Source of the DNA: Elusimicrobiota bacterium
GTDB taxonomy: Bacteria; Elusimicrobiota; Elusimicrobia; UBA1565; UBA9628
Direction: 5' to 3'
Assembly: GCA_027452025.1 (NCBI GenBank)
Contig: DAIDHI010000080.1
Coordinates: 58-64,057, forward strand
Length of the DNA: 64,000 nt
In this document: piece by piece, positions 6,825 through 56,735 of the stretch
Layout: each line of letters opens with the position of its first letter
How positions within the stretch are numbered: position 1 is the first letter of the stretch
Translations under genes and position numbers: made by a program
Notes under the pieces: generated by a model
What the model saw: the letters and a program-made list of their open reading frames with translations, nothing else
Told to the model about the DNA's origin: nothing
Database searches by the model: none

Positions 6825-7262
6825 TCAGACGCCGATGTCCTCGTTCCAGAGACGCGGATTGGAAGCGATGAAGCCGCGCATCAAGCCGATGCAAGCTTCG
6901 TCGCCGAGATCGACGATCTGGGCGCCTTGGGCGCGCAGCCAATGAGGCGCGCCGGCGAAATTCACCGACTCGCCGACGACGACCTTCGGGATGCGGAACT
7001 GCACGACGGCCCCGGAACACAGGTAGCAGGGCATCAGGGTCGAATACAGCACGGTCCCTTCATAGCGGCCGACGCGTCCGGCCTGGCGCAGGCAGTCGAT
7101 CTCGGCGTGGGCCATGGGGTCTCCCTGCTGGACGCGCCGATTGCGGCCCCGGCCGATGATGCGCCCGTCCTTGACCAGCACCGAGCCGATCGGAATGCCG
7201 CCTTCCTGGAGGCCCTGGCGAGCCTCGTCGAGAGCCGCTCGCAGAAAGACGTCGTGTTCCAT
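6825..7262 (-). CDS. nucleoside/nucleotide deaminase (CDA/TadA zinc-deaminase fold)
   Basis: HAEIDCL and PCYLCSGAV zinc-ligand motifs (H-A-E ... P-C-x-x-C). Confidence 0.75.
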   Translation of the reverse strand: MEHDVFLRAALDEARQGLQEGGIPIGSVLVKDGRIIGRGRNRRVQQGDPMAHAEIDCLRQAGRVGRYEGTVLYSTLMPCYLCSGAVVQFRIPKVVVGESVNFAGAPHWLRAQGAQIVDLGDEACIGLMRGFIASNPRLWNEDIGV

Positions 7263-25436: not shown

Positions 25437-26876
25437 ATGGTCCGCCCCATGAAAGAAGCCTTCACTTTCCACGATGTCCTCCTTGTCCCGAAGCGCTCCT
25501 CGATCCGCTCGCGCCGCGACGTCGACACCTCCGGGCGTTTCTCCAAGAACATCGCCCTGGAATGCCCCATCGTCTCCGCGAACATGGATACGGTCACGGA
25601 GGCGAAGATGGCCATCGCGCTCGCGCAGGCCGGGGGCCTGGGCGTCATCCACCGTTTTCTGACGATCGAGGAGCAGGTGGCCGAGGTGGCCAAGGTCAAG
25701 CGCGCCGAGAACATCGTCATCGAGAAGCCTTACACGGTGGGGCCCGACAACAGCGTGGATTTCGCCAGGCGCCTGATGGCCGAGCAGGAGGTTGGCGGCC
25801 TGCTGGTCGTCGACGCCGGGCAAAAGCTGCTGGGCATCGTCACCTCGCGCGACCTGCAGTTCCAAAAAGACGACACCCTCCCGATCAAGCGCGTAATGTC
25901 CAAGAAGCTCGTCACCGGCAAGGTCGGCCTGGACCTCGAGGAAGCCCAGGATATCCTGCGCGAGCACAAGATCGAGAAGCTTCCTCTCATCGACAAGGAC
26001 GGCAAGCTCGCCGGCCTCATCACCGCCAAGGACATCCGCAAGAAGAAGCACCATCCGCACGCCTCCAAGGACAAGAAGGGGCGGCTGATGGCCGGCGCCG
26101 CGGTGGGGGTCGTCGGGGATTTCATGGAGCGCTCCTCCGCGCTCATCGCGGCCGGCGCCGACGTCCTGGTCGTCGACGTGGCGCACGGCCATGCCGACCA
26201 CGTCATCGACGTCGTCAGGAAGATCAAGCGCAAGTGGCCGGGCGCGGAACTGGTGGCCGGAAACGTGGCGACTTACGAGGGCGCCAAGGACCTGGCCGGC
26301 GCCGGCGCCGACGGCGTCAAGGTAGGCGTCGGGCCGGGCTCGATCTGCAGCACCCGCATCGTCTCCGGCTCGGGGCTGCCGCAGCTCTCCGCCGTCATGG
26401 AGTGCGCCAAGATCACCCGCGAGCGCGGCATCCCGGTCTGCGCCGACGGCGGCATCCGGGACTCCGGAGACATCGCCAAGGCCCTGGCCGCGGGAGCTTC
26501 CTGCGTCATGCTCGGCTCTCTTTTTGCCGGCACCGAGGAAAGCCCGGGCTGGACCGTGGTGCGCGACGGAGCACGCTACAAGGTCTACCGGGGCATGGCC
26601 TCCCTGGGAGCGACGTTGTCGCGCAAGCGCAAGGAGCGCTCCGACGACGAGCTGGATCCCATCGAAGTGGCCGAGGTCGTGCCCGAGGGGGTGGAGTCCA
26701 TGGCGCCCTTCAAGGGTCCGGTGGCCGACGTGCTCTACCAGCTCCAGGGCGGCCTTCGCTCCGGCATGAGCTACTCCGGGGCGCGCACGCTCAAGGAGTT
26801 CTGGGACAACTCGGAGTTCGTCCGGATCACCGCCGCCGCTTGGGCGGAGTCGCGGCCGCATCATCTCGACCGCTGA
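25437..26876 (+). CDS. guaB: IMP dehydrogenase
   Basis: [14 protein letters not shown]-terminus, CBS pair, catalytic loop [11 protein letters not shown]. Confidence 0.9.
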
Positions 26877-28197
26877 AGAGCGGAGAAAGCTCCGGAAACG
26901 CTTCCAGCAGCTGCTCGCCGCGCAAGCGGTCCAGCCTCGCCGTCATCGAGCGCAACGCCTCGAGCTCTCCGCGGCAATCGTCGCGCGAATTCAAAAAGGC
27001 AAGCGCCGACCGAAACGGCGCCGCCGCGGCCTCACCCAAGGGCTCGAGGCGGTCGACGTAGGCCCGGTAAGCATCGATGGCGCGCTCCAGCAGCTCCGGG
27101 CCGAGGACGTGCGCCCGGTAATAGCGCGGCCAGCGCAGGGCTTTGATGCGCATGCCGTCCGCGGCCAGGTAGCCTTTTTCAACCCAGTCGCGGTGAAAAT
27201 TGGGCAGGTGGAGCGCGTTAAAGACGCTCAGCGTCGAGGCCACGGCGAAATCCACCCGGGGGCACTCACGCATGAGGCGCTTGCGGTTGTCCACTATGCC
27301 GTCCCACTTCTGCCCTTTGCGCAGGTACTGCGCCCGCGCGCCCATGGCATCGAGGCTGGCGACAACGCGCACTTCGCGGAACTTCGTCCAATAGCGCAAG
27401 GCGTCCCGGGAGCCCAGGCGCAGCGTGGAAAAGTTGGTCGTGTAGAACAAGGCGACGTCGAAGCGCCTGCGCGACGCCAGGTAGTCGAGGACGTCGTAAT
27501 GCTCGCGGGCCAGAAGAGGCTCTCCCGCGCCGCCGAATTGGATCGTGTGAGCCTCGTCGAGATGCGGCTTGAGGACCTCCAAGAAGCGCGCGCCCCGCGC
27601 CCCGGGCTCGATGAGCCTGGGCCGGGGGACCTTGCCGAGACGCTCGCCCGCCATGGCCGCCAGGTCGGGATACCAGCCCGAGCTGAGCTCGGGGTTGCAG
27701 GTCCGGCAGCTGTAGTTGCAAAGGTTGGAAAAGGTCAGGTGCAGGTAGCGCAGACGGGGATCGCGGAGGCCGCCGTCCTTCCTTGTCTGCGCGACCGCGT
27801 CGAAAAAACCGGAGAACCGGTCGTTGGCCCAATTGCGCATGCTGTACCAGCCGAAGCTCTCATGGGCCTGGCAGCGCTCGCATTGCGCAAGCCTCTTGCC
27901 CGCCAGCATGTCCCGGCGCGCCTTCTTGAGGGTTGGCTGGTTGAGAAAGCCGTCCGCGCGCAGGCCCTCCAAGCGCCCCAGGGACTTGCCTCGCGCGTCC
28001 CAGCGGCAGCACGGCGCCAGCCCCCCGTCGGCGAGGTTGCGCACGGCGAGCCAGGGCAGTATGCAGAAGCCCGGCGCTCGTTTAAGCGCGGCGTCGGGGC
28101 TCAGGCCTTCTTCAGGAGCTTGTTCTTGCAGAGTTGCTCGACCAGTGACCCAATCTCCGCCTCGGCCGCGGCGCCAGACACCTCGAAGAGACCGCAA
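26827..28197 (-). CDS. radical SAM protein with Cys-rich N-terminal domain, no SPASM cysteines
   Basis: CNYSCRTC CX3CX2C motif. N-terminal CILPW...CC...CERC cysteine cluster. N-terminal about 97 nt overlap the upstream PqqD gene in another frame. Confidence 0.7.
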   Translation of the reverse strand: MRSLRGVWRRGRGGDWVTGRATLQEQAPEEGLSPDAALKRAPGFCILPWLAVRNLADGGLAPCCRWDARGKSLGRLEGLRADGFLNQPTLKKARRDMLAGKRLAQCERCQAHESFGWYSMRNWANDRFSGFFDAVAQTRKDGGLRDPRLRYLHLTFSNLCNYSCRTCNPELSSGWYPDLAAMAGERLGKVPRPRLIEPGARGARFLEVLKPHLDEAHTIQFGGAGEPLLAREHYDVLDYLASRRRFDVALFYTTNFSTLRLGSRDALRYWTKFREVRVVASLDAMGARAQYLRKGQKWDGIVDNRKRLMRECPRVDFAVASTLSVFNALHLPNFHRDWVEKGYLAADGMRIKALRWPRYYRAHVLGPELLERAIDAYRAYVDRLEPLGEAAAAPFRSALAFLNSRDDCRGELEALRSMTARLDRLRGEQLLEAFPELSPLFSGRDDAAATPPKRRR

Positions 28198-28373
28198 AGC
28201 TCGTCGCGAGCCTCGGCCAGCGACAGGCCGCGGGTGAGGGAGTCCCAGATGGCCGCGCCCGTCTCATTGAGCGAGAAATAAGCGCTCGTGTCGGTGTCGA
28301 GGATCACCGTCTCTTTATCGACCTTCCTGAAGGCCACGTTATCAGGAATCTGGAACTTGTCGTTGAGCGTCAT
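28101..28373 (-). CDS. PqqD-family peptide chaperone (RiPP recognition element)
   Basis: 90 aa. VDKETVILDTDTSAYFSLNETGAAIWDSL...LVEQLCKNKLL matches the PqqD/RRE fold pattern. Confidence 0.75.
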   Translation of the reverse strand: MTLNDKFQIPDNVAFRKVDKETVILDTDTSAYFSLNETGAAIWDSLTRGLSLAEARDELCGLFEVSGAAAEAEIGSLVEQLCKNKLLKKA

Positions 28374-28385
28374 GTCGACCGGAGT

Positions 28386-29513
28386 CTACCTAAATATGGA
28401 TAACCGCAGGTAGGCCAGCGCGGCCGCCTCCCAGCGATAACGCGGCGAGCGCGCCAAGGCCGCCGCCCCGAGCCGCCGGCGCAAAGGGGCGTCTCGAAGC
28501 AGGCGCTCCAGCCCGGCGGCGAGCGCCGCCGGGTCCTTGGGCGCGACGAGCAGGCCCGTGCGCCCGTCCTGGACTACGTGGGCCAGCCCGCCGACGCGCG
28601 TCGCCAGGACGGGCTTCGCGCAGGCCATGGCTTCGACGGCGGCCATGCCGAATATCTCGAAGCGAGACGGCAGGACGAGGAAAAGGCACCGGCGCATCAA
28701 GGCGCGCAAGGCGGGGCGCTCGACGAGGCCTAAAAACCGCACGCGCCGGCCAAGGCCCAGCTTGGCGGCCAGCGACTGGAAATAGCCGTCGAAATGATCC
28801 GGGCCGCAGAGCACGAGCGTAACCCCGGGGAATCGCGCGCACACATCGCGCCAGGCGAGCAGCAGCAGGTCGATGCCTTTGTAGTAGTGAAGCCGCGCCG
28901 CGCAAAGGATGAAGCGCGAGCCCGCAGGCAGCGGAAGCGGCGCCGGGCGGCCCCGAAACTCGCCGGGGTCGAAGCCCGACGGCACGACGGCGACGCGGCG
29001 CGAGGCTCCGTCCGTGCGGCGGATGTCCTCGGCCACCGAGGGCGAGATCACGGTGACCCAGGCCGCGCGCCGAAACGCTTCGTCGAGAAGCCGCCAGCGC
29101 CGGCCGCGCTGAGGACGCTCGCCGGTGACCCGGTCCCAGGAATGAAAGGTCAGGCCTACGGGCACGCGGCGCGCCGAGCAGGCCCGCCAAAGCGCCGTGA
29201 GCTGGTTGTCTCGGAAGCAGCGCATGACGTGAAGATGGATCATGTCGGGCCGGAAGTCCGCGAGGGCCGAGGACAGCTGCGCGAAGATGCGCCGGCCGCG
29301 CCGGCGACGCTGCGAGCCGTTGCCCCCGAGGCGCCAGAAGCGGCCCCAGGGCCTGTCCTCGAAAAACGGCAGCCGCGCGCCGGGCGCCAACTGCGCCGCG
29401 GCGGCGACCGGGCAGCCGAGCTTGGCATAACCCGCGGCGAGGCCTGCGATGGTGGACTCGGCCGTCGGATCGCCGGCGAGGAACTCGGCGCAGATGAAAA
29501 CGCGGGGCCGGGC
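28386..29513 (-). CDS. glycosyltransferase family 1 (start codon unresolved)
   Basis: C-terminal GT1 (GT-B) signature ILCAARLHYYKGIDLLL...EIFGMAAVEAMACAKPVLATRVGG. Frame is open far upstream with no canonical start near the domain N-terminus. Confidence 0.55.
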   Translation of the reverse strand, partial: ARPRVFICAEFLAGDPTAESTIAGLAAGYAKLGCPVAAAAQLAPGARLPFFEDRPWGRFWRLGGNGSQRRRRGRRIFAQLSSALADFRPDMIHLHVMRCFRDNQLTALWRACSARRVPVGLTFHSWDRVTGERPQRGRRWRLLDEAFRRAAWVTVISPSVAEDIRRTDGASRRVAVVPSGFDPGEFRGRPAPLPLPAGSRFILCAARLHYYKGIDLLLLAWRDVCARFPGVTLVLCGPDHFDGYFQSLAAKLGLGRRVRFLGLVERPALRALMRRCLFLVLPSRFEIFGMAAVEAMACAKPVLATRVGGLAHVVQDGRTGLLVAPKDPAALAAGLERLLRDAPLRRRLGAAALARSPRYRWEAAALAYLRLSIFR

Positions 29514-29635
29514 TAGGGGAGGACGGCCAGGGCGATGCCGGCCTGCGTGGCCAAATAGGTCAACGCGCCGTGGACCACCAGCACCGGCTTGAGCCAAGGG
29601 CGCCTCTTGCGCTTCTTGTCCTTTCCCTTGGCCAT
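29513..29635 (-). CDS. small ORF (40 aa) with Lys-rich N-terminus and one hydrophobic segment, not in ORF track
   Basis: MAKGKDKKRKRRPWLKPVLVVHGALTYLATQAGIALAVLP. Lies between GT2 stop and GT1 domain. Confidence 0.3.
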   Translation of the reverse strand: MAKGKDKKRKRRPWLKPVLVVHGALTYLATQAGIALAVLP

Positions 29636-29653
29636 CCTCGGAATTAAAGCAGG

Positions 29654-30622
29654 TCACGGGGCCCCTGTCAACGCCAGGACGCCTCGCAGAGCGGGAGAGG
29701 CGAAATAAGGGTGCGCCGCGGCGCGCGAAAGCCACTCGCGCGCCCGCGGCCCGTCGCCGCTTTTGAGGCAGAGACCGGCCATCGCCGCGTAGAACTGCGC
29801 CGGCGCGGGATGTCCCTTGACGGCCTCGGCGTAGCGCCTGATGGCCAGGTCGAAGCGTCCGGCGGCGGCGTGCCGGGCCGCCAGCCACTCCGCGCGGTCC
29901 CAAGGGTGGCTGTCGGGCAGCGGAAAGCGCGCGAGACGAGAGCCCCATTTCTCGAAGAACTTCAAGCGCGCCGCCCCGGAGTCCGGATTGCGCCGCAGAT
30001 GGTCGTGGATCACGGCGCTGCCGCCGTGATAGAGGACGGCGAGCCCCTTCAAGCGAGCCCTCAGGCAATAGTCGAGGTCCTCGAACTGGCAAGGGAAGAA
30101 CCTCTCGTCGAACGGACCGACGCGCGAAAACAGCGAGCGGCGCATGAGCCAGCAGGCGCCGATCACGCTTTCGCAGCGGCGGGTGTAGTCGCGCTGGCCC
30201 AGGTCGCGCTCTTCCTCCCCGGCGTTGCGGCTCCACGGAGAGCCCATCTCCGCGGCGTTGATCGTGCCGTCCGGCCGCGCCACCTTGCAGCCGACGATGA
30301 CGGCCTTACGGTCGCCCTCGGCGGCCCGGAGCATCCCTTCCAGCCAGCCAGCCGTGGCGCGGGCATCGTCATCGAGCAGGACCACCCAATCAGAGCGGAG
30401 TCGCCCGCGGACGGCGTTGACGGCGCCGGAAAATCCCAGGTTGCGGCGGTGGCGAACCGCCTCGACGTCGGCGCCTCGCAGCCACGACGCCGTTCCGTCG
30501 CGGGAGGCGTTGTCGACGATGATCAGCCGGTGCGGGACGGCCCGCGTGTGGCGTCGGACCGATTGCACGCACGACGCCAGAGCCCGTCTGGCGTCGTGCG
30601 TGACCACGACGATGTCGATCAT
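29654..30622 (-). CDS. glycosyltransferase family 2
   Basis: IDIVVVTHDA...LIIVDNASRDGT GT-A N-terminus. DxD region. Confidence 0.8.
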   Translation of the reverse strand: MIDIVVVTHDARRALASCVQSVRRHTRAVPHRLIIVDNASRDGTASWLRGADVEAVRHRRNLGFSGAVNAVRGRLRSDWVVLLDDDARATAGWLEGMLRAAEGDRKAVIVGCKVARPDGTINAAEMGSPWSRNAGEEERDLGQRDYTRRCESVIGACWLMRRSLFSRVGPFDERFFPCQFEDLDYCLRARLKGLAVLYHGGSAVIHDHLRRNPDSGAARLKFFEKWGSRLARFPLPDSHPWDRAEWLAARHAAAGRFDLAIRRYAEAVKGHPAPAQFYAAMAGLCLKSGDGPRAREWLSRAAAHPYFASPALRGVLALTGAP

Positions 30623-30629
30623 CGGCTCC

Positions 30630-32612
30630 TCAGCTGGCCGCGGCGGAAAACGCGGCGAAATCGCTCATGCGAGGCATCTTGCGCACATAGGCGACGGCCT
30701 GCATCCGGTCGAGCGCGAGGCGCTGGGCGACCGGCAGGCTCGACATGGGCATGGCCAGGAAAAGGAAAGAGTCGTCCTCTTCGAAGACCCAGCGCCGCTT
30801 GACGAGGTCTGCGAGCGCCCGGCGCACGCGCTTGGCCGAGCAGCGGGGAAACTTTTCTTGGCAGGCCCGCAGGACGCCGGGGAAGGGACGGATCTCGTCG
30901 CAGGCTTCCAGGATCGCGGCCTCAAGGCCCGTGACCAGGCGCTGCCGGTGCTCGATGCGCCGGGAAAGCCCGAGCGGACGCGAGTCGTAGACCTCCATGA
31001 AGCCGAGGCCCTTGCGATAGGCGAAATAGTTCTTCTGGTAGATCCGCTGCCAATGGTCGAATATCGGGCGTATCACGGGCTCGGCGTAGTCAGCCGGATC
31101 CGGCTGCCCTTCGACGCTCGGCGCCTCGAAGAAGTAGGCGATCTCGCCGCGCTTGAAGCGCGGCTCTGGGTAGAGGAAACGGTATTCCTCCATAGGCACG
31201 GGCTCCCGCAGCCCGAAGCGCCGCCAGTCGAAGTAGTAGGGGCTGAAGCGGTCGACCCGGATGACGTGGGCGTAAAACGGCGGCTGCAGGTGCGTCGCCG
31301 CCGCCATCGTATCGGCGATCCTGCGGTACTCGTCGGGCGACTCGCCGGGAAAGCCCCACAGCATCCCCCACGTCAGCTGAATGCGGCCCGCGCAGGCCTT
31401 GAGCGCCTGGAGGTTTTGGATGGTCTTGACGCCCTTGCGCATCAGCTTGAGGACGGGCGTGCTGAAGCTCTCGATGCCCGCTTGGATCGCCAGGATTCCG
31501 GCCTCGTGAAGAGTCTCGATCTGGGCCGCCGTCAAGTTCGCCTTGGTCTCGAAAAAAACGTGCCACTCGAGCTTGTGCTTCTTGCGAAACTCCGCCAGGA
31601 CGGCGGTGAGGCTGGTGAGGTGCTCCACGCTCAGGATGTTGTCGCAGGCATGCAGCCGGTAGGTCTTGTATCTCTCGAAGAGGAAGGCGATCTCGGCGGC
31701 GACGGCCTGCGCCGGCTTGGCGCGGAACGTCATGCCGTCGCGGTTGAGCCCGCAGAACGTGCAGTGCTGCTTCTGCCCCCACCAGCATCCGCGGGAGGCC
31801 TCGAAAGTCACCTGCGGCGAGACCCACGATGCCATGCCCGAGGCCTCAAGCTCACGGAAATAGTCGTCGTGGTCGGGAACTGGCACGCGGCGCATGTCGG
31901 CCAGGCGCGTCTCAGCGGGGTTTCGGGAGACGACGCCCTCGCCTGTCCGCGCCGAGACATGCGGCATCCCCTTCGGGAGCCGGCCGGAGCGGATGTGCCG
32001 CAGCAGCGCCGGAAACGCCTCCTCGGCCTCGCCTTCGACGACGTAGTCGACCCACTCGCAGCCCTTGAGCGTCGCCACCCCCATCTCGCCGTCGCAATTG
32101 GCTCCGCCGAGGACGATCGTCGTTTTCGGATGCTTGCGCTTGATGAGGCGGGCCAGCGCCAGAGAGGCGATGTGATTGTGGAACATGCTGCTGAAGCCGA
32201 CGACGTCGTAGCGCCCCCAGGGGACGTCGGCCAGGCAATGCTCGAGGAAAGCCGGCACGTCGTCGCGCACGAGCCTGCGCAGGCGCTCGCGCGGAAATTT
32301 TCCAAGGTTCTTGGCGAACACGGGCTCGGCGAGGACGTCCTCGAGCTCGTCAGGCAGCTCCTTGAGGCCGCCCGGGCCGAAAAGATGATAGGCGAAGGCC
32401 CACTGCGCGAAATGCCCGTAGGGAGCGAGCGCGAAGGCGTCGAGAAGGTCGTCGGCCCACCGGCCGAAGCGCAAGTTGAGGTAGTGGACGTCGCAAGGCA
32501 TCCCTTCACGCGCGAGGACGCTTTTGAGCACGCCGACTCCGAGCGGAGGCCGGTCGGGCGCGGCCCAAGGCATGACGACCAAGGCGACGCGGAGGCTGCG
32601 CGGTTTGGACAT
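30630..32612 (-). CDS. B12-binding domain radical SAM protein
   Basis: N-terminal B12-binding-like domain (LRVALVVMPWAAPDRPPLGVGVL). Radical SAM core with CWWGQKQHCTFC. Start moved to MSKPRSL because the upstream part of the long ORF would overlap the divergent oxygenase gene. Confidence 0.8.
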   Translation of the reverse strand: MSKPRSLRVALVVMPWAAPDRPPLGVGVLKSVLAREGMPCDVHYLNLRFGRWADDLLDAFALAPYGHFAQWAFAYHLFGPGGLKELPDELEDVLAEPVFAKNLGKFPRERLRRLVRDDVPAFLEHCLADVPWGRYDVVGFSSMFHNHIASLALARLIKRKHPKTTIVLGGANCDGEMGVATLKGCEWVDYVVEGEAEEAFPALLRHIRSGRLPKGMPHVSARTGEGVVSRNPAETRLADMRRVPVPDHDDYFRELEASGMASWVSPQVTFEASRGCWWGQKQHCTFCGLNRDGMTFRAKPAQAVAAEIAFLFERYKTYRLHACDNILSVEHLTSLTAVLAEFRKKHKLEWHVFFETKANLTAAQIETLHEAGILAIQAGIESFSTPVLKLMRKGVKTIQNLQALKACAGRIQLTWGMLWGFPGESPDEYRRIADTMAAATHLQPPFYAHVIRVDRFSPYYFDWRRFGLREPVPMEEYRFLYPEPRFKRGEIAYFFEAPSVEGQPDPADYAEPVIRPIFDHWQRIYQKNYFAYRKGLGFMEVYDSRPLGLSRRIEHRQRLVTGLEAAILEACDEIRPFPGVLRACQEKFPRCSAKRVRRALADLVKRRWVFEEDDSFLFLAMPMSSLPVAQRLALDRMQAVAYVRKMPRMSDFAAFSAAAS

Positions 32613-32657
32613 TTTGTTGCAAGGGGACGTCGCTGAAGTATTATAGTATATCGCCCT

Positions 32658-33209
32658 ATGGAGATCGTCGAGGAAGCCAGCGATATTTTCAGCTTTCAGC
32701 TCCTCTCGCCGAGCTATTGCCAAAAACTCGTCCGGTGGGCTTCGCGGGACCTCCGGTGGAATCGCGGGCGCGTGTACGCCGGTCCGCGGCGCCTGCAGGA
32801 CGCCGCCTCCCGCCGCTGCCTGGAGCGCACGGTCGCCGGCCTGCCCCCTCCCTGGAACGAGCTGGCGCAGGCTTGCCGCGAAAAGGCGCTTTCCGCGGCG
32901 CGGCTGTGCTGGCGCGAGCGCTTCAGGCGGCTGACCGGAGCGCGTCTGGTGCGCTACGACCCCGGCGGCTATTTCAAGATGCATTGCGACTTCCTCCCCA
33001 GCCTGCGGGTCAAGCCGCGCTTCCTGAGCCTGGTCTGCTATCTCAACGAAGACTTCTCGGGCGGGCGCACGGCCTTCCCGCGGCAAGCCCACGACATCGT
33101 CCCAAAGACCGGGAAAGCCGTCCTCTTCCCGTCCTCGATCACGCACCCTCACGAAGCCCAGGCCGTCCGAGAGGGGACCCGCTACGTGATCGTGGCCTGG
33201 GTCGAATGA
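32658..33209 (+). CDS. 2OG-Fe(II) oxygenase (prolyl-4-hydroxylase-like)
   Basis: YFKMHCDF ... ITHPHEA His-x-Asp...His facial triad spacing. RYVIVAWV. Confidence 0.75.
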   Translation: MEIVEEASDIFSFQLLSPSYCQKLVRWASRDLRWNRGRVYAGPRRLQDAASRRCLERTVAGLPPPWNELAQACREKALSAARLCWRERFRRLTGARLVRYDPGGYFKMHCDFLPSLRVKPRFLSLVCYLNEDFSGGRTAFPRQAHDIVPKTGKAVLFPSSITHPHEAQAVREGTRYVIVAWVE

Positions 33210-33964
33210 GGGGCCGCCGCCCCGCGGTCTGCGTCGTCATCCCGACCTTCGACCGCATCGAGTTCCTCAAGCCCTGCCTGGAGTCCGTCTACGCGCAGAC
33301 GTTTCGCGGCTTCGAAATCGTCGTCGTGGACGACGGCTCGACCGACGGCACGGCGCGCTGGCTTGCCTCGCGGCGGCTGCCGCGCCTGACCTTGCTGCGC
33401 AACGCGCGCAACCGCGGCCCGGCCAGAGCCCGCAACCGCGCCCTCGCCGCGGCTTCGGCGCAGCTCTTGGCGTTCCTCGATTCGGATGACCTCTGGCGGC
33501 CCGGCTATCTGGACGCGATGACGCGCGCCTTTCGCGATCCGGGCATCGTGGCCGCGTTCTCGGGCTACGACCGCATCGACGAGCGCGGACGCCTGCGCCG
33601 CGGCGCCGGGCGCCCGCGCCGCAACCTGGCCCTGGAGGCGGTCGCGGGCCTCGAGACCCCGCCGCCGCCCTCGACGATGGTCATCCGAAGGCAGGCCTGC
33701 CGAGAGCTCGGCGGCTTCGACGAGCGCTTCGGACGGGTAAACGAGGACATCGACTTCCTGCTGCGCGCGGGCCTGCGCTACGGACCCGCCTCCTTCCGCC
33801 TCCAGCCGCGCAAGCTTGTCTTGCGCCGGCGTCATGGCGGCCAGATCAGCCGCCGCCTGCAAATCGAGCCTCTCGACACCGCCTGGCTCAACCTCAAGCA
33901 TCGCTGGTGGCTCGAGCTCCTGGCCGAAGGCGCTGGGCCCGGGCCCAGCGCGCTTAGGCCCTAA
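33205..33964 (+). CDS. glycosyltransferase family 2
   Basis: VCVVIPTFDRIEFLKPCLESV...VVVDDGSTDGT. ATGA overlap with the oxygenase stop. Confidence 0.8.
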
Positions 33965-34005: not shown

Positions 34006-35943
34006 ATGCTCAGAATATTGGCAGCTCTCCTGCTCGCCTGCCCGGCCGCCGCCGGCCAACTCCAGCAGGCCCCGGGGCCAGTCGAAGTCCCCTCTTTGCC
34101 CGCCGCGCAGGCCGCCGTTTTCCCGCGGCTCGACGCCCCGGCCGCGGCCGCGTCGCCCCAGGCGACGGCTTCCCAGGCGCCTCAAGCGCCCGCCGCGGCC
34201 GAAGCGGCGGAGCCGGCGGCCGCTCCGGCGCCGGCAGCCTTCGAGGCCCGGCCCTCCTTCGCGCGCCGCCTGCTCTATTCCAACTTCGCCGCGCGGCGCA
34301 TGGCGGCGCGCCTGCTCGACCGAAACCTTGGCTCCGCCCTCGGCGACCGGCTGTCATCGGAGCCGGCGCTGGCCCCTCACGCGCGGTTTTGGAGCGACCA
34401 ATCCGTGCGCATCGAGCTCGTCCCGGCCAAGGCCCTCGGTGCCTCGACGCGCGCGGCGAGCTACTCCCACAACCGGCGAGTCGTCCGGATCAACCGCGAC
34501 CGGGCCGCGCGCTGGCTCTGCGAGATCGCCGCCCAGGGAGCCCCTTTCGCGCAAGGCATCGACGTCCTGACCGAGAAACTCTTGCCGCTGCTGGCCCACG
34601 AGTTGCGCCACGGAATCACCAAGACCCAATGGCAGCGCGCCCTGGGCCATCGCCTCCCGATCGAGGCGCGCGAAAACGAGGTCCTCTCCTTCGCCGACGA
34701 GCTGCGCGTCTGGCAGGGGCTCAAGGATCGGCCGTCGGCGAGCGCCGAGCTCAGCCACCTCGACGAGCATCACCGGATCGTCGCCTCCTACTGGGCGCGG
34801 GACGGCTGGGCCGGTCTGGACTCGATCATCGACCAGGTGTATCGCCAGCCCGCCTTGCTCGGAGACCGGCAGGCCGTGCACGACGCCGCGCTCGCGGCCG
34901 CGGTCCGGACGCTCGGCGGCTCCGAGATCTCCGGCCTCCCCCAGACGCTCGCCGCGGCCTCCGGCGACGAGTCTTGGAGCCGCTTTCAGGAAGGCTTCCG
35001 CCCGCTCTATGAGGAGCAAAAGCGGGCCGTGGCGCCGGCGCCCGAGGAGACGCATCCGGCCTCGGCCATCGTCGCCGCGCTCAAGGCGACGGCGCTCAGG
35101 CGCCTGGCCTTCCGGCCTTGGGTCGTTCATCGCCTTCTGCCGCGCCTGCTCGGCGGCGCCGTGGTCAAGACCATGACCGCGGAGCTCGCGCGTCTCGCCT
35201 CGACCGGAGAGGAGGCCGCGTATCTGGCGCGCCAAGGTCCGGCGATCAAGCTCGACGGCGCTCCGCGCCTCGACGCGCACGACATGGCGCTCTACGACCG
35301 GGGCGCGCGCGACACGATCTATCTCAACCGCGACCGGCTGGGCGTCTGGCTGGCCTACCGTCTCATCGAGGGAGACTCGCCCAGGCAAGCCGCGCGCACG
35401 GTCGGCCTGAAGTTCCTTCCCACTCTCGCACACGAAGTGCGTCACGCGATCACCGACGGCCAATGGCTCGAGCGTTTGGGGTTCACCTTCATGGGCGGCA
35501 ACATCGAGACGGAGATGATCTCCCACGCGCAGACCGTCCGGGTCATCGGCGAGGTCAGGGCCAGGCACGAAAAGGAGCTTTCCTCGCGCCCGATCCCCGG
35601 ACTCGACGACCACCACGACGAGCTGCTCGAGCTTTGGCGGCAGGGCGGCTGGAGCGCCCTGGGCGCCTACGTGCGCCGCGAATACGAGACGCGCGTCTCC
35701 ATCCTCCGGACGGAGCGCGGCGAGCTCCACAACGTCATGAGCGCCATCGGCCTCGTCACCGCCGTGGGCATGTCCCAGGAAAAGGACGCCGCCGCGGCGA
35801 TGCGCGCCGTCTACGGCGACTTCCGCGCGTTTTTCTCCCAGCTCGACGACGCGGCCTCCTGGGAGGCCTTCCGCGGCCGCTTTTCCGGCGTCTACGCGCG
35901 CCAACTGCGCGCCGTCAGCCCCCGCCTTCCTTCCGCCCGCTGA
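34006..35943 (+). CDS. secreted protein with internally duplicated HExRH-containing domain
   Basis: Signal peptide MLRILAALLLACPAAAG, Ala/Pro-rich linker. Two repeats each containing LAHE(L/V)RH(G/A)IT..QW. Confidence 0.5.
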   Translation: MLRILAALLLACPAAAGQLQQAPGPVEVPSLPAAQAAVFPRLDAPAAAASPQATASQAPQAPAAAEAAEPAAAPAPAAFEARPSFARRLLYSNFAARRMAARLLDRNLGSALGDRLSSEPALAPHARFWSDQSVRIELVPAKALGASTRAASYSHNRRVVRINRDRAARWLCEIAAQGAPFAQGIDVLTEKLLPLLAHELRHGITKTQWQRALGHRLPIEARENEVLSFADELRVWQGLKDRPSASAELSHLDEHHRIVASYWARDGWAGLDSIIDQVYRQPALLGDRQAVHDAALAAAVRTLGGSEISGLPQTLAAASGDESWSRFQEGFRPLYEEQKRAVAPAPEETHPASAIVAALKATALRRLAFRPWVVHRLLPRLLGGAVVKTMTAELARLASTGEEAAYLARQGPAIKLDGAPRLDAHDMALYDRGARDTIYLNRDRLGVWLAYRLIEGDSPRQAARTVGLKFLPTLAHEVRHAITDGQWLERLGFTFMGGNIETEMISHAQTVRVIGEVRARHEKELSSRPIPGLDDHHDELLELWRQGGWSALGAYVRREYETRVSILRTERGELHNVMSAIGLVTAVGMSQEKDAAAAMRAVYGDFRAFFSQLDDAASWEAFRGRFSGVYARQLRAVSPRLPSAR

Positions 35944-36389: not shown

Positions 36390-36426
36390 GCGGCCTCTCC
36401 GCTCGCGCGGAGAGGCCGCTCATTTT
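36390..36426 (+). terminator. rho-independent terminator hairpin (shared region with the 3' end of antisense RNase P RNA)
   Basis: GCGGCCTCTCCGC-tcgc-GCGGAGAGGCCGC followed by TCATTTT. Confidence 0.6.
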
Positions 36427-36799
36427 AGGGAGAGCCTGTACCCCGAATTCTGTTCCCCCCTCGCGGAGGGCGAGGATCATTTCTCTGATGCGGCTACCGA
36501 GGAGCCGCCCCGCCTCTCGGCGGGACCGCGCGGGCCGCGCGAGCTCCCACACTGCCTTGCTCCGGACGGGGTTTGCCGTGACGCCGTCCCTCGCGGGACG
36601 GCCGGTGGGCTCTTGCCCCACCTTTTCACCCTTGCACTCCGCACGGTCTGCGGAGTGCGGTTGTTCTCTGTGGCACTTTCCGTCGGCGAAGCGTATGGTC
36701 TTCGCCTCCCCGCCTTTCGACGGGCGTCCTGCCCTGCGGAGTTCGGAAGTTCCTCCCCCCGCGACGCGTCGCGGAAGGCGATCCCCCGGCTCTCCCTAA
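36424..36799 (-). ncRNA. rnpB: RNase P RNA (bacterial type A)
   Basis: Minus-strand sequence has the P1 pairing AGGGAGAGCC / GGCUCUCCCU. It has GGAGGAACUUCCGAACUCCGCAGGGCAGG (P4/P5 region), GGAAAGUGCCACAGAGAACAACCG, AAGGGUGAAAAGGUGGGGCAAGAGCCCACC, CCGUCCGGAGCAAGG and ACAGAAUUCGGGGUA. These are collinear with E. coli M1 RNA conserved regions. Confidence 0.85.
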
Positions 36800-37565: not shown

Positions 37566-38084
37566 ATGGCGGCCTCAAAAGTCGTTTTGCTCGTCGGCCA
37601 CGGGGGAATCCCCAAGGATTGCCCGCCGCAGCTCGTCTCCGAGTTCAAGCGCGAGGAGGCCCGGGCGGCCGGAAAGCCCTCCGCGCGCCTCCTCGAGCTC
37701 GACGCCCGCCTGCGCCAATGGCCCCGGACGCCGGAAAACGACCCCTATAAGCCCGGCTTGGAGGCCGTGGCGGCCTCCCTCGCCGCGGCCCTGCCGGAGC
37801 ACGACGTCGTCACCGCCTACAACGAATTCTGCGCGCCAAGCCTCGAGCAGGCCTTCGACGAGGCCGTGGCGGGCGGCGCCCGCCAGATCATTGTGATCAC
37901 CACCATGTACACGCGCGGGGGCATCCACAGCGAAAAGGAAATCCCAGCGATCCTGGAGGGCCTGCGCCGGCGCCATCCGGGAGTCGAGGCCCGCTACGTC
38001 TGGCCCTTCGATGCCGCGGCGATCGGGGAGTTCCTGGCCCGGGAAGTGCGCCGTACCGAGACGGACGCGCCGGCCCCGGCATGA
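37566..38084 (+). CDS. sirohydrochlorin chelatase CbiX-like
   Basis: VVLLVGHGGIPKD and second-half His region typical of small CbiX/SirB chelatases. Only the last 173 codons of the long track ORF are used. Confidence 0.65.
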   Translation: MAASKVVLLVGHGGIPKDCPPQLVSEFKREEARAAGKPSARLLELDARLRQWPRTPENDPYKPGLEAVAASLAAALPEHDVVTAYNEFCAPSLEQAFDEAVAGGARQIIVITTMYTRGGIHSEKEIPAILEGLRRRHPGVEARYVWPFDAAAIGEFLAREVRRTETDAPAPA

Positions 38085-39865
38085 AGCTCTGGCTGACCTT
38101 GGCCGCGCTCCTGGCAGCCGCGACGCCCGCGCAAGCTTTCTTCTCCCACGCCCGAAAGGCCGCTTCCCCGCCGGCCGCGCCCGCGCCGCCGCCCGAACCC
38201 CTCGATCCGCTGACGACGGCCGAGATCGACGGCGCGGCGCAGGCGCTGCGCGACTCGCGGCTTTTCAGCGATTCCGCCGTCTACCTTTCCATCGCCCTCC
38301 AGGAGCCGTCCAAAGACGAGCCGGGCGCGGGCAAAAGGCTCGCCGCCGCCGTCATCTATGACCGCGCGCGCCGCGAGACCTCGGAGGCCGTCGTCGACGT
38401 CGCCAACCGCAAGCTCGAGTCGTGGCGCCTGGTCCCCGGCATAGAGCCCGGGCTTTCCGACGAGGAGCTCTCGCGGGCGCGGAAACTGGCGTTGTCCGAC
38501 TCCCGCTTCAAGGCGGCGATGGCGGCGCGCGGCCGCAAGACCTGGGACGATCTCGAGGTCGACGGCTGGTCGCCCGGGCCGCTCGACGCGGCGCGCAACT
38601 CGCCGCACCGGGTGGCGCGTCTGGACTTCTACGTGCCCGCGGCGCGCGGCCGCGTCCTCATCGACGGGCTGCAGGCGCTGGCCGACCTGACCGAGGGCAC
38701 GGTCGTCGAGCTGCTCGACGCCGGCGGGCCGCCTCTGCCGCCGCCGGCCCAGGCCCAGGCCCCGGCCCCCGCGCCGCCGCCGCAGCCGGCCAAGAAGAAG
38801 AAAAAACGGGAGGAAGCCCCCGCGCCTGCGGCGCCCTCCTACCCGTTCGAGGTCGCCGGCCACGAACTGCGCTGGCGAGGATGGACGCTGCGCTACGCGC
38901 TGACGCCGCGCGAAGGGCTCGTCCTCTACGAGGTCTCGCGCGACGGCCGGGGGATCGCCGACCGGGCGAGCCTTTCCGAGACGTTCGTCGTCTACGGCGA
39001 CGCGCGGCCGCAGTGGGCCGACCGCTCGGTTTTCCAGGAAGGCGAGCGCGGCCTGGGCCTGCGCGATATCCCGCTCGATCCCGCCCTGGACGCTCCCTCG
39101 CAAGCCGCCTTTTTCGACGAACCGGGCCCGGGGCCGGACGGCCGGGGCCGGATGCTGACGCGCGCCGTCGCCGTCTTCGAGCGAGACGCCGGCCGCGGAG
39201 CCGTCCGCCGCCTCAAGGAGCTCGTCCTCGAATCCAAGGCGCAGGCCGGACCCGAGACCTACGTCACGCGCTGGACCCTGGGCGACGACGGCGAGCTCGA
39301 CGCCGGCGTCGACGTCTCGCAAGACGACCCGGAGGCGCCGCCGCACCAGCATTTCTTCAATTTCAGGGTGGATTTCGACGTCGACGGCAGCACCGACTCG
39401 GTGGCCGAGCTGGAGGCCGCGCCCGGACGGATGACCCTGCTGTCGACGCCCCTGGAAAACCGCTCCCAGGCCCGTCGCGACGTCGACGAGGCGGCGGGCC
39501 GCCGGTGGCTCGTGACGGCGTCCTCCCCCTCGGCCGACGCCTCCCGAGGCTACCTGATCATCCCGGAGGGCAACGCGGCGCCGCTTTCGCCCGCCTTCTC
39601 GCCCGCGCGCCGCGCCGCGCCCTTCATCGGTCACCAGCTTTGGATCACGGCCTACCGCCCCGACGAGCTTTACGCGGCCGGAGAGTTCCCGGGCCGCCGC
39701 GCGCGCGCCGGAGGCGTCGAGCGCTGGACCCAGCGCGACGAGCCGATCCGCGACGCAGACCTCGTCGTCTGGTACACGCTGGGAGCCACGCATCTGCCCA
39801 GGGCCGACGGCTCCGCCCGCCGCCCGCTTTCCTGCCGCCTGCGCCTGGTCCCCGCCGGGCGCTAG
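38081..39865 (+). CDS. copper amine oxidase-like secreted protein (TPQ consensus absent)
   Basis: HQHFFNFRVDFDVDG matches the CuAO copper-His / RLDxDVDG signature. No T-x-x-N-Y-(D/E)-Y topaquinone motif at the expected position. Poly-Lys/Pro low-complexity insert. Confidence 0.5.
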   Translation: MKLWLTLAALLAAATPAQAFFSHARKAASPPAAPAPPPEPLDPLTTAEIDGAAQALRDSRLFSDSAVYLSIALQEPSKDEPGAGKRLAAAVIYDRARRETSEAVVDVANRKLESWRLVPGIEPGLSDEELSRARKLALSDSRFKAAMAARGRKTWDDLEVDGWSPGPLDAARNSPHRVARLDFYVPAARGRVLIDGLQALADLTEGTVVELLDAGGPPLPPPAQAQAPAPAPPPQPAKKKKKREEAPAPAAPSYPFEVAGHELRWRGWTLRYALTPREGLVLYEVSRDGRGIADRASLSETFVVYGDARPQWADRSVFQEGERGLGLRDIPLDPALDAPSQAAFFDEPGPGPDGRGRMLTRAVAVFERDAGRGAVRRLKELVLESKAQAGPETYVTRWTLGDDGELDAGVDVSQDDPEAPPHQHFFNFRVDFDVDGSTDSVAELEAAPGRMTLLSTPLENRSQARRDVDEAAGRRWLVTASSPSADASRGYLIIPEGNAAPLSPAFSPARRAAPFIGHQLWITAYRPDELYAAGEFPGRRARAGGVERWTQRDEPIRDADLVVWYTLGATHLPRADGSARRPLSCRLRLVPAGR

Positions 39866-51676: not shown

Positions 51677-51751
51677 TGGTGGGCAGTATAGGATTCGAAC
51701 CTATGACCCCTGTCGTGTGAGGACAGTGCTCTACCGCTGAGCTAACTGCCC
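51677..51751 (-). tRNA. tRNA-Val (anticodon CAC)
   Basis: Minus strand GGGCAGUUAGCUCAGCGGUAGAGCACUGUCCUCACACGACAGGGGGUCAUAGGUUCGAAUCCUAUACUGCCCACCA. 7-bp acceptor stem, GGUUCGAAUCC T-arm, anticodon loop CUCACAC, encoded CCA. Confidence 0.9.
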
Positions 51752-51862: not shown

Positions 51863-52378
51863 ATGAGCGACAGGCTTAAGGCGGCGAAGGCGCGGTTCGT
51901 GTCCACCTGGGGCGAGATGGCGTCCCATTGGGGCATCAACAAGACGATGGCGCGCATCCATGCGCTGCTCATCGCCTCCGACGCCGCGCTCTCGGTCGAC
52001 GAGATCATGGCAACGCTCTCGATCAGCCGCGGTAACGCCAGCATGAACCTGCGGGCGCTGATGGACTGGGGCCTGGTCAGGCGCGTTTCGGTGGGCAGCG
52101 AGCGGCGCGAGTATTTCCAGAGCGAGAAGGACGTCTGGAACATGTGCTGCCGCATCGCGCGCGAGCGCAAGAAGCGGGAGATCGAGCCCGTGATCGGCGC
52201 TCTGGAGGAATGCCTGCGCGAAGCCGGGGAAGGCCAGGACTCGGCGGCCTTCCGGCGCCGGACCAAGGAGCTCTTGGAGCTGGTCAAGACCCTCGATTTC
52301 GTGCTCGGCAAGGTCGCCGCGCAAGAGAAGAACGCCGTCATGCCGCGCGTGCTGACGCTGCTCAAGGCCATGTCATGA
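51863..52378 (+). CDS. MarR/GbsR-family transcriptional regulator
   Basis: Winged-helix pattern (SVDEIMATLSISRGNASMNLRALMDWGLVRRV) as in GbsR/MarR-like regulators. Confidence 0.65.
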   Translation: MSDRLKAAKARFVSTWGEMASHWGINKTMARIHALLIASDAALSVDEIMATLSISRGNASMNLRALMDWGLVRRVSVGSERREYFQSEKDVWNMCCRIARERKKREIEPVIGALEECLREAGEGQDSAAFRRRTKELLELVKTLDFVLGKVAAQEKNAVMPRVLTLLKAMS

Positions 52379-53319: not shown

Positions 53320-53320
53320 G

Positions 53321-53761: not shown

Positions 53762-53767
53762 GGCGCC

Positions 53768-54739: not shown

Positions 54740-54745
54740 GCGGAC

Positions 54746-56592: not shown

Positions 56593-56612
56593 CCGGCAGA
56601 CAGGAGTCAAGC

Positions 56613-56735
56613 ATGAACGACCAGAAGAAGACCGTGACCGTCGTGAAGGCCGAGCCGAAGCTCGTTTGGCAGACCCCCTCCCTGGAGGAGGTCTCCGATC
56701 GGGTGATGGCGCAGCCTTACATCCGGTTCACGTGA
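56613..56735 (+). CDS. 40-aa candidate precursor peptide (PqqA-like leader)
   Basis: MNDQKKTVTVVKAEPKLVWQTPSLEEVSDRVMAQPYIRFT. caggag SD 7 nt upstream. Located between radical SAM paralogs 2 and 3. Stop overlaps GTG of paralog 3. Confidence 0.5.
   Translation: MNDQKKTVTVVKAEPKLVWQTPSLEEVSDRVMAQPYIRFT

Follow-up and report, generated by a model that had tools for sequence, protein, structure and literature searches.

Several described pathways for peptides that are made ribosomally and modified after translation (RiPPs) share components with a gene cluster at 26.8-34.0 kb of the DNA analysed here, a 64,000-nucleotide stretch of contig DAIDHI010000080.1 from an Elusimicrobiota bacterium (the window). 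In the clavusporin pathway (mpc), the cobalamin (B12)-dependent radical S-adenosylmethionine (SAM) enzyme MpcB, which carries a CX7CX2C motif, adds as many as eight beta-methyl groups to a hydrophobic peptide, at Pro, Val, Ile and Thr; its activity is largely leader-peptide-dependent, and it has a large C-terminal domain (PMC10849626). Lasso precursors carry a conserved leader motif, YxxPxL, at positions -17 to -12 (PMC10368454). The window cluster combines a B12-dependent radical SAM enzyme, a second radical SAM enzyme, a PqqD-family protein, a 2-oxoglutarate (2OG)-Fe(II) oxygenase and three glycosyltransferases with an open reading frame (ORF) of 40 amino acids. We regard it as a RiPP cluster in which this ORF encodes the precursor and the neighbouring enzymes tailor the peptide, a reading to which we assign a probability of about 0.72. 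By analogy with characterised enzymes, the peptide is probably methylated, hydroxylated and glycosylated.

Six of the genes form a densely packed operon on the minus strand, running from 32612 to 26827. They encode the B12-binding radical SAM enzyme (30630-32612, 660 amino acids), a GT2 glycosyltransferase with C-terminal TPR repeats (29654-30622), the candidate precursor (29513-29635), a GT4/GT1 (GT-B) glycosyltransferase, referred to here as GT4 (28386 to about 29501), the PqqD-family protein (28101-28373, 90 amino acids) and a twitch-domain radical SAM enzyme with the motif CNYSCRTC, or CX3CX2C (26827-28197). On the plus strand, the 2OG oxygenase (32658-33209, 183 amino acids) is followed by a second GT2 glycosyltransferase (33206-33964, 252 amino acids) and by a 645-amino-acid protein with two HExxH motifs (34006-35943). 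The window has about 68% G+C, and high third-position G+C marks the real genes. An earlier note on this DNA, made from the sequence without database searches, had listed a set of genes at 26827-33964, and ORF, Pfam and NCBIfam scans found every one of them at its position.

Compared by description, the B12 radical SAM enzyme resembles MpcB in its CX7CX2C motif and its C-terminal extension, which in the window includes a winged-helix domain. The mpc cluster, however, has a DUF5825 partner (MpcC), an S9 peptidase and an MFS transporter, none of which was found among the window's cluster genes; as described it is without PqqD, 2OG oxygenase, glycosyltransferases or a second radical SAM enzyme, and its leader differs from that of the window. 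The split B1/B2 lasso systems, represented by TbiB1 and TfuB1, possess a discrete PqqD-type RiPP recognition element (RRE) like the window's, which is closest in sequence to B1 proteins, and the window motif [YW]xxPxL, about 17 residues before the variable tail, is akin to the lasso motif at -17 to -12. Unlike these systems, the window is without a B2 protease or a macrolactam synthetase, its tailoring enzymes are radical SAM, 2OG and glycosyltransferase proteins, and two of the five orthologous tails of the window family have no acidic acceptor residue. Mycofactocin biosynthesis (MftA-F) has a small peptide, a PqqD-family chaperone, a radical SAM enzyme and a GT2 in common with the window, but the window's radical SAM enzyme has an N-terminal twitch domain where the mycofactocin system has a C-terminal SPASM domain, the conserved GVY tail there contrasts with a variable tail ending in VLP here, and all Mft scores fall below cutoffs. 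A plasmid-encoded homolog 34% identical to the B12 radical SAM enzyme bears the same NCBI product name and adjoins an annotated pheganomycin-family RiPP precursor gene. The function listed for the pheganomycin and polytheonamide enzymes is methylation of unactivated side-chain carbons, polytheonamide being likened by function alone; precursors of the pheganomycin and proteusin systems (pheganomycin-family or with an NHLP-type leader) and their partners (a peptide ligase, the epimerase PoyD) are unlike the window's, and these systems are without the glycosyltransferases and the discrete PqqD that the window has. A further likeness, by analogy only, is to collagen LH3, mimivirus L230 and the Skp1 pathway: the window's 2OG oxygenase is related to peptidyl Pro/Lys hydroxylases and is encoded beside glycosyltransferases, which suggests hydroxylation followed by glycosylation, although the window enzymes are separate proteins and the similarity is weak (E about 1e-4 to 1e-3).

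Full-text searches, in which subscription journals are incompletely covered, returned no description of this gene combination or of the leader family, and no characterised RiPP from Elusimicrobiota-like uncultured bacteria was found in the searched literature. Reported Elusimicrobia clusters of nitrogenase paralogs and radical SAM genes (bioRxiv 10.1101/765248) were set aside, their context being different. Known enzyme families are joined here in an undescribed combination with an undescribed precursor family, and this type of cluster recurs in a few uncultured Elusimicrobiota-like bacteria. Given that the antiSMASH RiPP rules include one named TIGR03975 (PMC9426513), a standard pipeline would probably flag the region, without naming the precursor or the class.

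The 40-residue precursor candidate and its leader family

The 40-amino-acid ORF at 29513-29635 on the minus strand (MAKGKDKKRKRRPWLKPVLVVHGALTYLATQAGIALAVLP) is recorded at NCBI as a protein (P0121) and has a third-position G+C content of 0.93. Its translation starts with a Lys/Arg-rich N-terminus, continues with the motif W14-x-K-P17-x-L19-x-x-H-G23 and ends in a hydrophobic tail with Pro as the last residue. The earlier note mentioned this ORF in passing and held that no obvious precursor was encoded; it is, on the contrary, the best candidate. Judged from its sequence and that of its relatives, the ORF is very likely the precursor of the cluster, because its orthologs adjoin GT4 genes, differences between them accumulate at third codon positions, the leader is of the lasso type, and the tail is hypervariable around an invariant Pro.

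Related loci were fetched through homologs of the twitch radical SAM enzyme and searched by tblastn with all window proteins; orthologs of the B12 radical SAM enzyme then led to further loci. Orthologs of the peptide at 51-68% identity lie directly 5' of orthologous GT4 genes in four other organisms (L062/L079, L081, L087 and L088). L062, a syntenic locus found via the twitch homologs, belongs to the Elusimicrobiota metagenome-assembled genome (MAG) SMAG_U13971 (62% G+C) and comes from the same organism as L079. Its peptide (MASDKDKKKKKRPYVKPLLIIHGSLTFLATQAGTALATLP) is 67.5% identical to that of the window, exceeding the identity of every enzyme in the locus (B12 radical SAM 53%, GT4 48%, 2OG oxygenase 45%, twitch radical SAM 40%). 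Nucleotide identity between the two ORFs is 69%, versus 18-28% in the 60-nucleotide flanks. Twenty-six codons differ, 13 by synonymous and 13 by nonsynonymous changes, and the differences at codon positions 1, 2 and 3 number 8, 8 and 22.

A comparison of two close relatives shows where the peptide changes. L081, in which the peptide is a 41-amino-acid ORF before GT4 (MANEKDAGAPKRKPYVKPLLILHGSLTFLATQAEIASAFIP), and its close relative L088 share 91% nucleotide identity over the peptide region. Codons 1-36 have accumulated four synonymous and no nonsynonymous changes, while every one of codons 37-40 has changed (SAFI to AMAT), with the terminal Pro retained. Across the five orthologs, the invariant part reads P[YW][VL]KP[LV]L..HG.LT[FY]LATQA, and the last eight residues vary save for Ala35 and Pro40. 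A conserved leader joined to a hypervariable core is the signature of a RiPP precursor.

When the window peptide was compared exhaustively with 1.84 billion proteins by phmmer, P0246 (E 3.9e-5) and P0247 (E 7.1e-5) emerged as members, each followed by a GT4 gene on its own short contig. Another match, P0245 (452 amino acids), was rejected as spurious, being a repetitive and unrelated sequence. A word-indexed search with the peptide returned only the peptide itself, and a metagenome scan with patterns of the Lys-rich N-terminus returned only L079. On a JGI contig available without its DNA (P0127), two small ORFs of 43 and 42 amino acids occupy the position of the peptide.

A six-frame scan of all fetched loci added five more distant peptides, for a total of ten distinct peptides with a common leader. 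Their C-termini are unrelated, and their shared N-terminus consists of Met-Ala, a Lys-rich stretch and Y-x-[KRP]-P-x-[LVM]-x-x-[HYM]-G-[ST]. The loci that encode them carry the same enzyme set as the window cluster. In L061, a peptide of 43 amino acids (MRKNLKGKKGKDDRKRKYIRPALVTMGTLLGATTSPPPVFASY) lies between a twitch and a B12 radical SAM gene, with a GT2 and a TPR protein as neighbours. The L064 peptide is encoded next to an Asp/Asn beta-hydroxylase, in a locus with PqqD, four B12 radical SAM-like genes, a twitch radical SAM gene and GT2 enzymes, and the two peptides of L083 are accompanied by two 2OG genes, PqqD, a SPASM radical SAM gene, four B12 radical SAM genes and a flavin amine oxidase. 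The fifth is a 134-amino-acid protein, identical in L001 (9034-9438, minus strand) and L002 (12308-12712), encoded directly 5' of GT4 and accompanied by two twitch and three B12 radical SAM enzymes, a SPASM radical SAM enzyme, PqqD and three GT2 enzymes. Its first 39 residues comprise the leader (leader region MAKNEGPKKKRKKKYIPPSLTVYGSIMGLGLEQVAASSS) and a short tail, and the remainder is a Peptidase_S74 self-cleaving chaperone of the endosialidase type. If cut at the Ser/Arg junction, the protein would free a peptide of about 39 residues, the size of the free-standing precursors; we know of no other RiPP-like precursor fused to an S74 domain.

A hidden Markov model (HMM) built from the ten leaders was searched against six-frame ORFs of about 90 loci and the window. 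Members scored at E 9e-9 or better and the next ORF at E 0.017, a gap that measures separation rather than independent discovery, since the model was built from the same ten sequences. The YxxPxL segment is the part of a lasso leader recognised by B1 proteins, and in the window peptide the corresponding residues, W14 to L19, sit 17-18 residues before Ala32, where the variable tail starts. Several family peptides weakly match lasso leader models exactly at this motif, all below cutoff: the window peptide reaches 21.9 bits with NF033534 (cutoff 30), and related peptides fall below the cutoffs of NF033528 and NF033521. With a lasso-like leader motif and a lasso-B1-like PqqD protein in one cluster, peptide, leader and RRE type are mutually consistent.

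Longer members of the leader family occur at 4498-4677 of L083 and at about 6926-7156 (minus strand) of L064, with a shared block, G[TS]TSCC[LV]T[QE]R[ML]R, that includes a Cys-Cys pair. Their sequences suggest a distinct subfamily with thiol chemistry.

Promoter-like elements also stand close to several of the peptide genes. A perfect TTGACA and a TTTAAT separated by a 17-nucleotide spacer lie at 29643-29671 on the minus strand, 7 nucleotides before the ATG of the window peptide. As a scored sigma-70 promoter this site failed the scanner's rule, which looks for A at position 2 of the -10 element, and we retain it as a lead. L081 and L088 have TGCTATACT 6 nucleotides before the peptide ATG, and L079 and L087 have TATAAT plus a Shine-Dalgarno sequence before the peptide gene. 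The position of these elements just 5' of the ATGs suggests that the peptide genes have promoters of their own and that some of the transcripts are leaderless.

Predicted tailoring enzymes and competing interpretations

What recurs with the peptide was examined across the related loci. The peptide is followed by GT4 in L079, L081, L087 and L088, and the same arrangement is seen in the P0127 contig and L001. Both the window and L079 have one peptide, a TIGR03975-type B12 radical SAM enzyme, a twitch radical SAM enzyme, one hydroxylase and GT4 after the peptide; PqqD is present in the window and absent from L079. L081 likewise has one peptide, one hydroxylase, the TIGR03975-type enzyme and the following GT4, with PqqD and no twitch enzyme. 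The P0127 contig has two small ORFs, two hydroxylases, PqqD, the TIGR03975-type enzyme and GT4 without a twitch enzyme; L083 has two peptides, two hydroxylases, PqqD and the TIGR03975-type enzyme, with neither a twitch enzyme nor GT4 after the peptide. L064 has one peptide, PqqD, B12-type enzymes, a twitch enzyme and one hydroxylase, again without GT4 after the peptide, and L001 has one fused peptide, PqqD, B12-type enzymes, two twitch enzymes, no hydroxylase and GT4 after the peptide. The conserved adjacency is therefore peptide then GT4, and the conserved co-occurrence is that of peptide, TIGR03975-type B12 radical SAM enzyme and 2OG oxygenase. The number of hydroxylases equals the number of peptides in six loci (1/1 in four of them and 2/2 in two). 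Recurrence of the gene set in at least six other metagenomic loci indicates an arrangement beyond chance. The earlier note had treated PqqD and its neighbouring radical SAM gene as a pair, but L081 keeps PqqD without the twitch enzyme and L079 the twitch enzyme without PqqD, so their adjacency is local rather than a conserved unit.

The B12 radical SAM enzyme scores 585.7 bits (cutoff 281.85) over positions 1-605 of 606 of TIGR03975, the model for RiPP maturation radical SAM C-methyltransferases, and also matches PF02310 (39.3 bits, cutoff 32.1) and PF04055 (48.1 bits). Its cluster motif, C276-WWGQKQH-C-TF-C (CWWGQKQHCTFC), was called unusual in spacing by the earlier note; the CX7CX2C spacing is in fact the family hallmark, and among 93 homologs CWWGxKxHCTFCG shows conservation of 90% or more. 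L079, L080, L081 and the P0127 contig each encode an ortholog at 53% identity. Members of TIGR03975 are expected to have a precursor encoded nearby, and here the conserved 40-amino-acid ORF lies 1 kb away; the orthologous enzymes in L079, L081 and the P0127 contig likewise have small ORFs nearby. By family the enzyme is a bona fide TIGR03975 RiPP C-methyltransferase, and methylation is predicted. Its last 221 residues, in an AlphaFold2 model (pLDDT 94.6), form three strands, three helices and a hairpin, and the PqqD profile aligns to this region with hhalign (62% probability, E 7.7e-5); from the model, the C-terminal winged-helix domain is possibly a peptide-binding domain of the enzyme's own.

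The 2OG oxygenase (PF13640, 64.5 bits) has an intact H109xD111...H163/165 motif, and its orthologs in L079 and L081 are 42-45% identical. Its best relatives in the Protein Data Bank (PDB) are procollagen lysyl hydroxylase LH3, bacterial (Bacillus) and viral prolyl 4-hydroxylases, PHD2 and the mimivirus lysyl hydroxylase/glycosyltransferase, with which the alignment spans residues 4-182, nearly the entire protein. All of them act on peptidyl Pro or Lys, and the matches are weak (E 1e-4 to 1e-2). In sequence, the enzyme resembles the peptidyl prolyl/lysyl hydroxylase type.

Three glycosyltransferases accompany these enzymes. The minus-strand GT2 (PF00535, 81.9 bits) carries TPR repeats (TPR_19 28.6 bits, TPR_14 24.4 bits), a typical peptide-binding module; the plus-strand GT2 scores 112.2 bits with PF00535, and GT4 scores 140.5 bits with PF00534 and 66.5 bits with PF13439. 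For both GT2 enzymes the best NCBIfam match is MftF (TIGR03965), at 71 and 111.7 bits against a cutoff of 280. This match bears on a mycofactocin-like alternative, in which a few C-terminal residues would be modified by radical SAM chemistry on the PqqD-bound peptide, excised, given an oligosaccharide by GT2/GT4 and C-methylated to yield a small molecule or cofactor. The pairing of a PqqD-type RRE with a radical SAM enzyme follows the logic of MftB/MftC, the peptide's last residue is invariant, Tyr is the last residue of the L061 peptide, and the flavin amine oxidases found in L079, L064 and L083 could serve as MftD-like enzymes. However, the MftF scores lie far under the cutoff, the window has no ortholog of MftC (TIGR03962), MftD or MftE, and there is no amine oxidase inside the window cluster. 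A cofactor also predicts a conserved tail, whereas the tail differs even between the close relatives L081 and L088. We judge this alternative improbable, though it fares best of those considered.

The twitch radical SAM enzyme scores 304.3 bits (cutoff 170) with NF033640, 'twitch domain-containing radical SAM', and has no Pfam match at E 0.01 or better. Cysteines C45, C63, C64, C106 and C109 of its N-terminal region, along with CX3CX2C, are invariant or nearly so among 80 homologs. The earlier note had described a Cys-rich N-terminus and no SPASM domain: the C-terminus is indeed without SPASM, but the N-terminus is itself a twitch or half-SPASM-like domain. The 5' end of the gene overlaps the 3' end of the PqqD gene. 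NCBI's 405-amino-acid version begins at GTG 28044 and loses the conserved FCxLPW with the first cluster cysteine; the sole upstream in-frame start is TTG 28197, which gives a 97-nucleotide overlap. No characterised member of NF033640 was found in the PDB or the searched literature. From its relatives, the enzyme may act on the peptide, for example in epimerisation or cross-linking, or on a sugar. The uncharacterised family has undergone a large expansion: the Elusimicrobia MAG MJ-2014_bin-0981 has more than 20 loci with paralogs (L003-L016, L019, L024, L030, L041, L045 and L049), and many of the homologs in the protein database carry long fused TPR arrays (700-790 amino acids).

A sugar substrate is at the centre of a second alternative, in which an envelope polysaccharide or glycolipid is what the locus modifies. 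Sugars would be the substrates of the radical SAM, B12 and 2OG enzymes, and PqqD and the small ORF would be bystanders or have a structural role at the membrane. Three glycosyltransferases in the cluster, the widespread occurrence of the twitch family without these peptides, its best structural match (the sugar-nucleoside enzyme BlsE), a DegT-type sugar aminotransferase in L064 and the absence of PqqD from L079 would all fit. Yet the B12 radical SAM enzyme belongs, with a high score, to a family that peptide substrates define, the hydroxylase is of a peptidyl type, and the small ORF is conserved, coding-like and equipped with a leader that matches the RRE type present. Among the nine cluster genes and the scanned flanks there was no gene for an initiating phosphoglycosyl transferase, for a flippase or an ABC exporter, or for a polymerase or a chain-length regulator, and Pfam and NCBIfam scans found no Wzx/Wzy-type protein or polyprenyl-phosphate glycosyltransferase among the cluster genes. 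We consider this alternative quite unlikely. The earlier note's preference for a tailored peptide over a plain polysaccharide locus is supported by the candidate precursor, the TIGR03975 membership and the RRE.

That RRE, the PqqD protein, passes the PF05402 threshold that the earlier note had proposed for the assignment (54.5 bits, cutoff 23.4, profile positions 1-67 of 67). Its best NCBIfam match is lasso_PqqD_Strm (NF033530; 53.2 bits, below the cutoff of 70), it reaches 42.4 bits with NF033536 (below the cutoff of 80), and its best PDB relatives by sequence are the lasso B1 proteins TbiB1 (5v1u, E 1.7e-7) and TfuB1 (6jx3, E 1.4e-5). The protein is a discrete RRE of the lasso B1 type and a predicted leader binder. 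The earlier note would have taken homologous loci that lack PqqD and are annotated as exopolysaccharide or LPS modification clusters as a sign against its reading; L062/L079 lacks PqqD but keeps the peptide, and orthologs of PqqD are present in L001, L064, L081, L083 and the P0127 contig. A lasso peptide cluster with its cyclase and leader peptidase encoded elsewhere in the genome is very improbable despite the lasso-like leader motif, the weak matches of several peptides to lasso leader HMMs and the closeness of PqqD to lasso B1 proteins, because neither an Asn-synthetase-like cyclase nor a transglutaminase-like B2 protease turned up in the genes scanned at 20.9-41.7 kb or in the called or scanned genes of six related loci, every lasso HMM score is below cutoff, and the tails AGIALAVLP (window) and AGTALATLP (L062) offer no Asp/Glu for an isopeptide ring, the acceptor being at core position 7-9.

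Several observations weigh against the RiPP reading. PqqD was not detected in the six-frame translation of L079 (phmmer, filters off); that this locus keeps the peptide all the same indicates that a discrete RRE is not obligatory, and a peptide-binding domain within the TIGR03975 enzyme offers a possible explanation. Two structure searches with that C-terminal domain, though, returned generic winged-helix matches and no known RRE. About ten leader-family peptides are known, all of them metagenomic, and the combination of a basic N-terminus with 23 hydrophobic C-terminal residues (mean Kyte-Doolittle 1.6) would also suit a small protein anchored in the membrane. The glycosyltransferases that GT4 resembles act on small molecules and lipids and are not known peptide glycosyltransferases, and its start is awkward: the orthologs in L079 and L081 start with GTG where the window has CCC. 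The closest starts in frame are a TTG at 29597, which falls within the peptide ORF but in a different frame, and a non-canonical ATC at 29495. An overlapping gene, a non-canonical start or an assembly error (29495-29515) could account for it. For the twitch enzyme, the nearest structural match is the sugar-nucleotide enzyme BlsE, its structural neighbours include both sugar- and peptide-acting enzymes, and the NF033640-type family is broad (Bdellovibrionota, Bacteroidota, Acidobacteriota) and mostly without leader-family peptides. Finally, no protease or transporter is conserved across the related loci.

If the cluster is a RiPP cluster, its parts suggest the following sequence of events. PqqD would bind the leader at [YW]xxPxL, much as YxxPxL is bound by lasso B1 proteins, and present the peptide to the tailoring enzymes; the B12 radical SAM enzyme may offer the leader a second docking site in its C-terminal winged-helix domain. 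This enzyme would methylate the hydrophobic tail at unactivated carbons of Ile, Leu, Val, Ala and Pro in the manner of MpcB and of family members in the pheganomycin and polytheonamide pathways, and the 2OG oxygenase would hydroxylate a side chain, for which the C-terminal Pro, being invariant, and a Lys in the basic N-terminus are candidates. Sugars would be attached by GT4 and both GT2 enzymes, possibly to the new hydroxyl or to conserved Thr residues, and the twitch radical SAM enzyme would add a further radical modification to peptide or sugar. For leader removal and export there are no conserved genes; the 645-amino-acid double-HExxH protein is a candidate peptidase in this genome only. 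A bolder version, which we offer tentatively, is that the cluster is a founding member of a new RiPP class in which a lasso-type leader and RRE deliver a short, hydrophobic and hypervariable C-terminal core, without lasso formation, to iterative B12-dependent C-methylation, to peptidyl hydroxylation by a prolyl 4-hydroxylase/lysyl-hydroxylase-like enzyme and to O-glycosylation at the hydroxyl so made. The product would then be a bacterial counterpart of the collagen/Skp1 type, an amphiphilic glyco-methyl-peptide, with an S74-released variant in L001.

Flanks, neighbouring features and the second PqqD locus

The two arms of the cluster diverge from a 45-nucleotide spacer between the B12 radical SAM and 2OG oxygenase genes. 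As the earlier note had pointed out, this region is promoter-like: it contains TTGCAA-16-TATTAT (32617-32644, plus strand), the only sigma-70-like site detected in 26.7-34.1 kb. The head-to-head layout of the two genes is also found in L081, which has PqqD and GT4 as well, and in the P0127 contig. Five gene boundaries (40-amino-acid ORF, PqqD, B12 radical SAM, 2OG oxygenase and 645-amino-acid protein) coincide with NCBI-recorded proteins of the 64.5-kb contig, each a singleton at 90% identity.

The 645-amino-acid protein (34006-35943, plus strand) corresponds to the secreted protein with duplicated HExRH domains of the earlier note. Its halves are homologous (27.7% identity, E 3e-24), each with an HExxH motif (residues 198 and 476), and its N-terminus is signal-peptide-like as judged by eye. 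Nothing in Pfam, NCBIfam or the PDB matched it, and none of the related loci encodes a homolog. On its motifs it may be a metallopeptidase, and its membership in the cluster is uncertain.

Housekeeping genes bound the cluster on the left (a cytidylate-kinase-like gene, hemB and a guaB-like gene). To the right lie a CT398-like zinc-ribbon protein, RNase P RNA, CbiX, a copper amine oxidase and an Omp85 protein. The cluster therefore extends over 26.8-34.0 kb, possibly up to 35.9 kb. The class A RNase P RNA (36423-36797, minus strand, 182.5 bits) shows that housekeeping DNA lies about 0.5 kb rightward of the last gene that may belong to the cluster, and an ordinary housekeeping tRNA-Val(CAC) lies at 51677-51751 on the minus strand. 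An Rfam search found no riboswitch within the cluster. The copper amine oxidase (38081-39865, plus strand; signal-peptide-like N-terminus by eye) is 2 kb from the cluster; that one lies nearby here and flavin amine oxidases lie inside related loci is probably a coincidence.

The window has another PqqD locus, at 51863-57700 on the plus strand. It encodes a GbsR/CudC-like regulator, a polyprenyl diphosphate synthase, a 146-amino-acid protein with a C-terminal PqqD domain, three SPASM-type radical SAM enzymes (AhbD/NirJ/MftC-like, below cutoffs) and a MenA-like UbiA prenyltransferase. The earlier note had proposed that the PqqD and radical SAM proteins of the present cluster act in trans on a peptide of the 51.8-58.6 kb locus. 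This is unnecessary: the enzyme set there is different and no leader-family peptide was found. By its gene content, that locus resembles a pathway to a prenylated cofactor or a quinone more than it does a partner of the 26.8-34 kb cluster.

Among the related loci, L081 (6258-9568; 72.6% G+C) and L083 (17689-21247) have the same flanks, namely two response regulators, two hypothetical genes and cpn10, with different peptides and enzyme sets: one window-type peptide in L081, and two other peptides with more radical SAM genes in L083. Such a gene order looks as though a RiPP island of varying content occupied one fixed site in the chromosome. A gene of the sulfatase family (PF00884) is found again and again, in L081 (725-2104), L083 (1-1369), L064 (20003-21136), L084 (5139-7766) and the P0127 contig. 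It adjoins PqqD or a SPASM radical SAM gene in three related loci, and the window cluster is without it. Its product could be a sulfatase or a phosphoethanolamine-transferase-like enzyme.

What the cluster would mean

If the RiPP reading is right, one short peptide would receive C-methylation at unactivated carbons, side-chain hydroxylation and glycosylation, modifications that are rarely combined. The lasso-type leader and B1 recognition module would be portable to non-lasso pathways, and genome-mining tools keyed to B1-like RREs or YxxPxL leaders would mislabel such clusters. The large, uncharacterised N-terminal-twitch family NF033640 would for the first time have a substrate context that can be tested. 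That four tail residues are hypervariable between close relatives suggests diversifying selection, which would fit a molecule with a part in competition or surface interaction.

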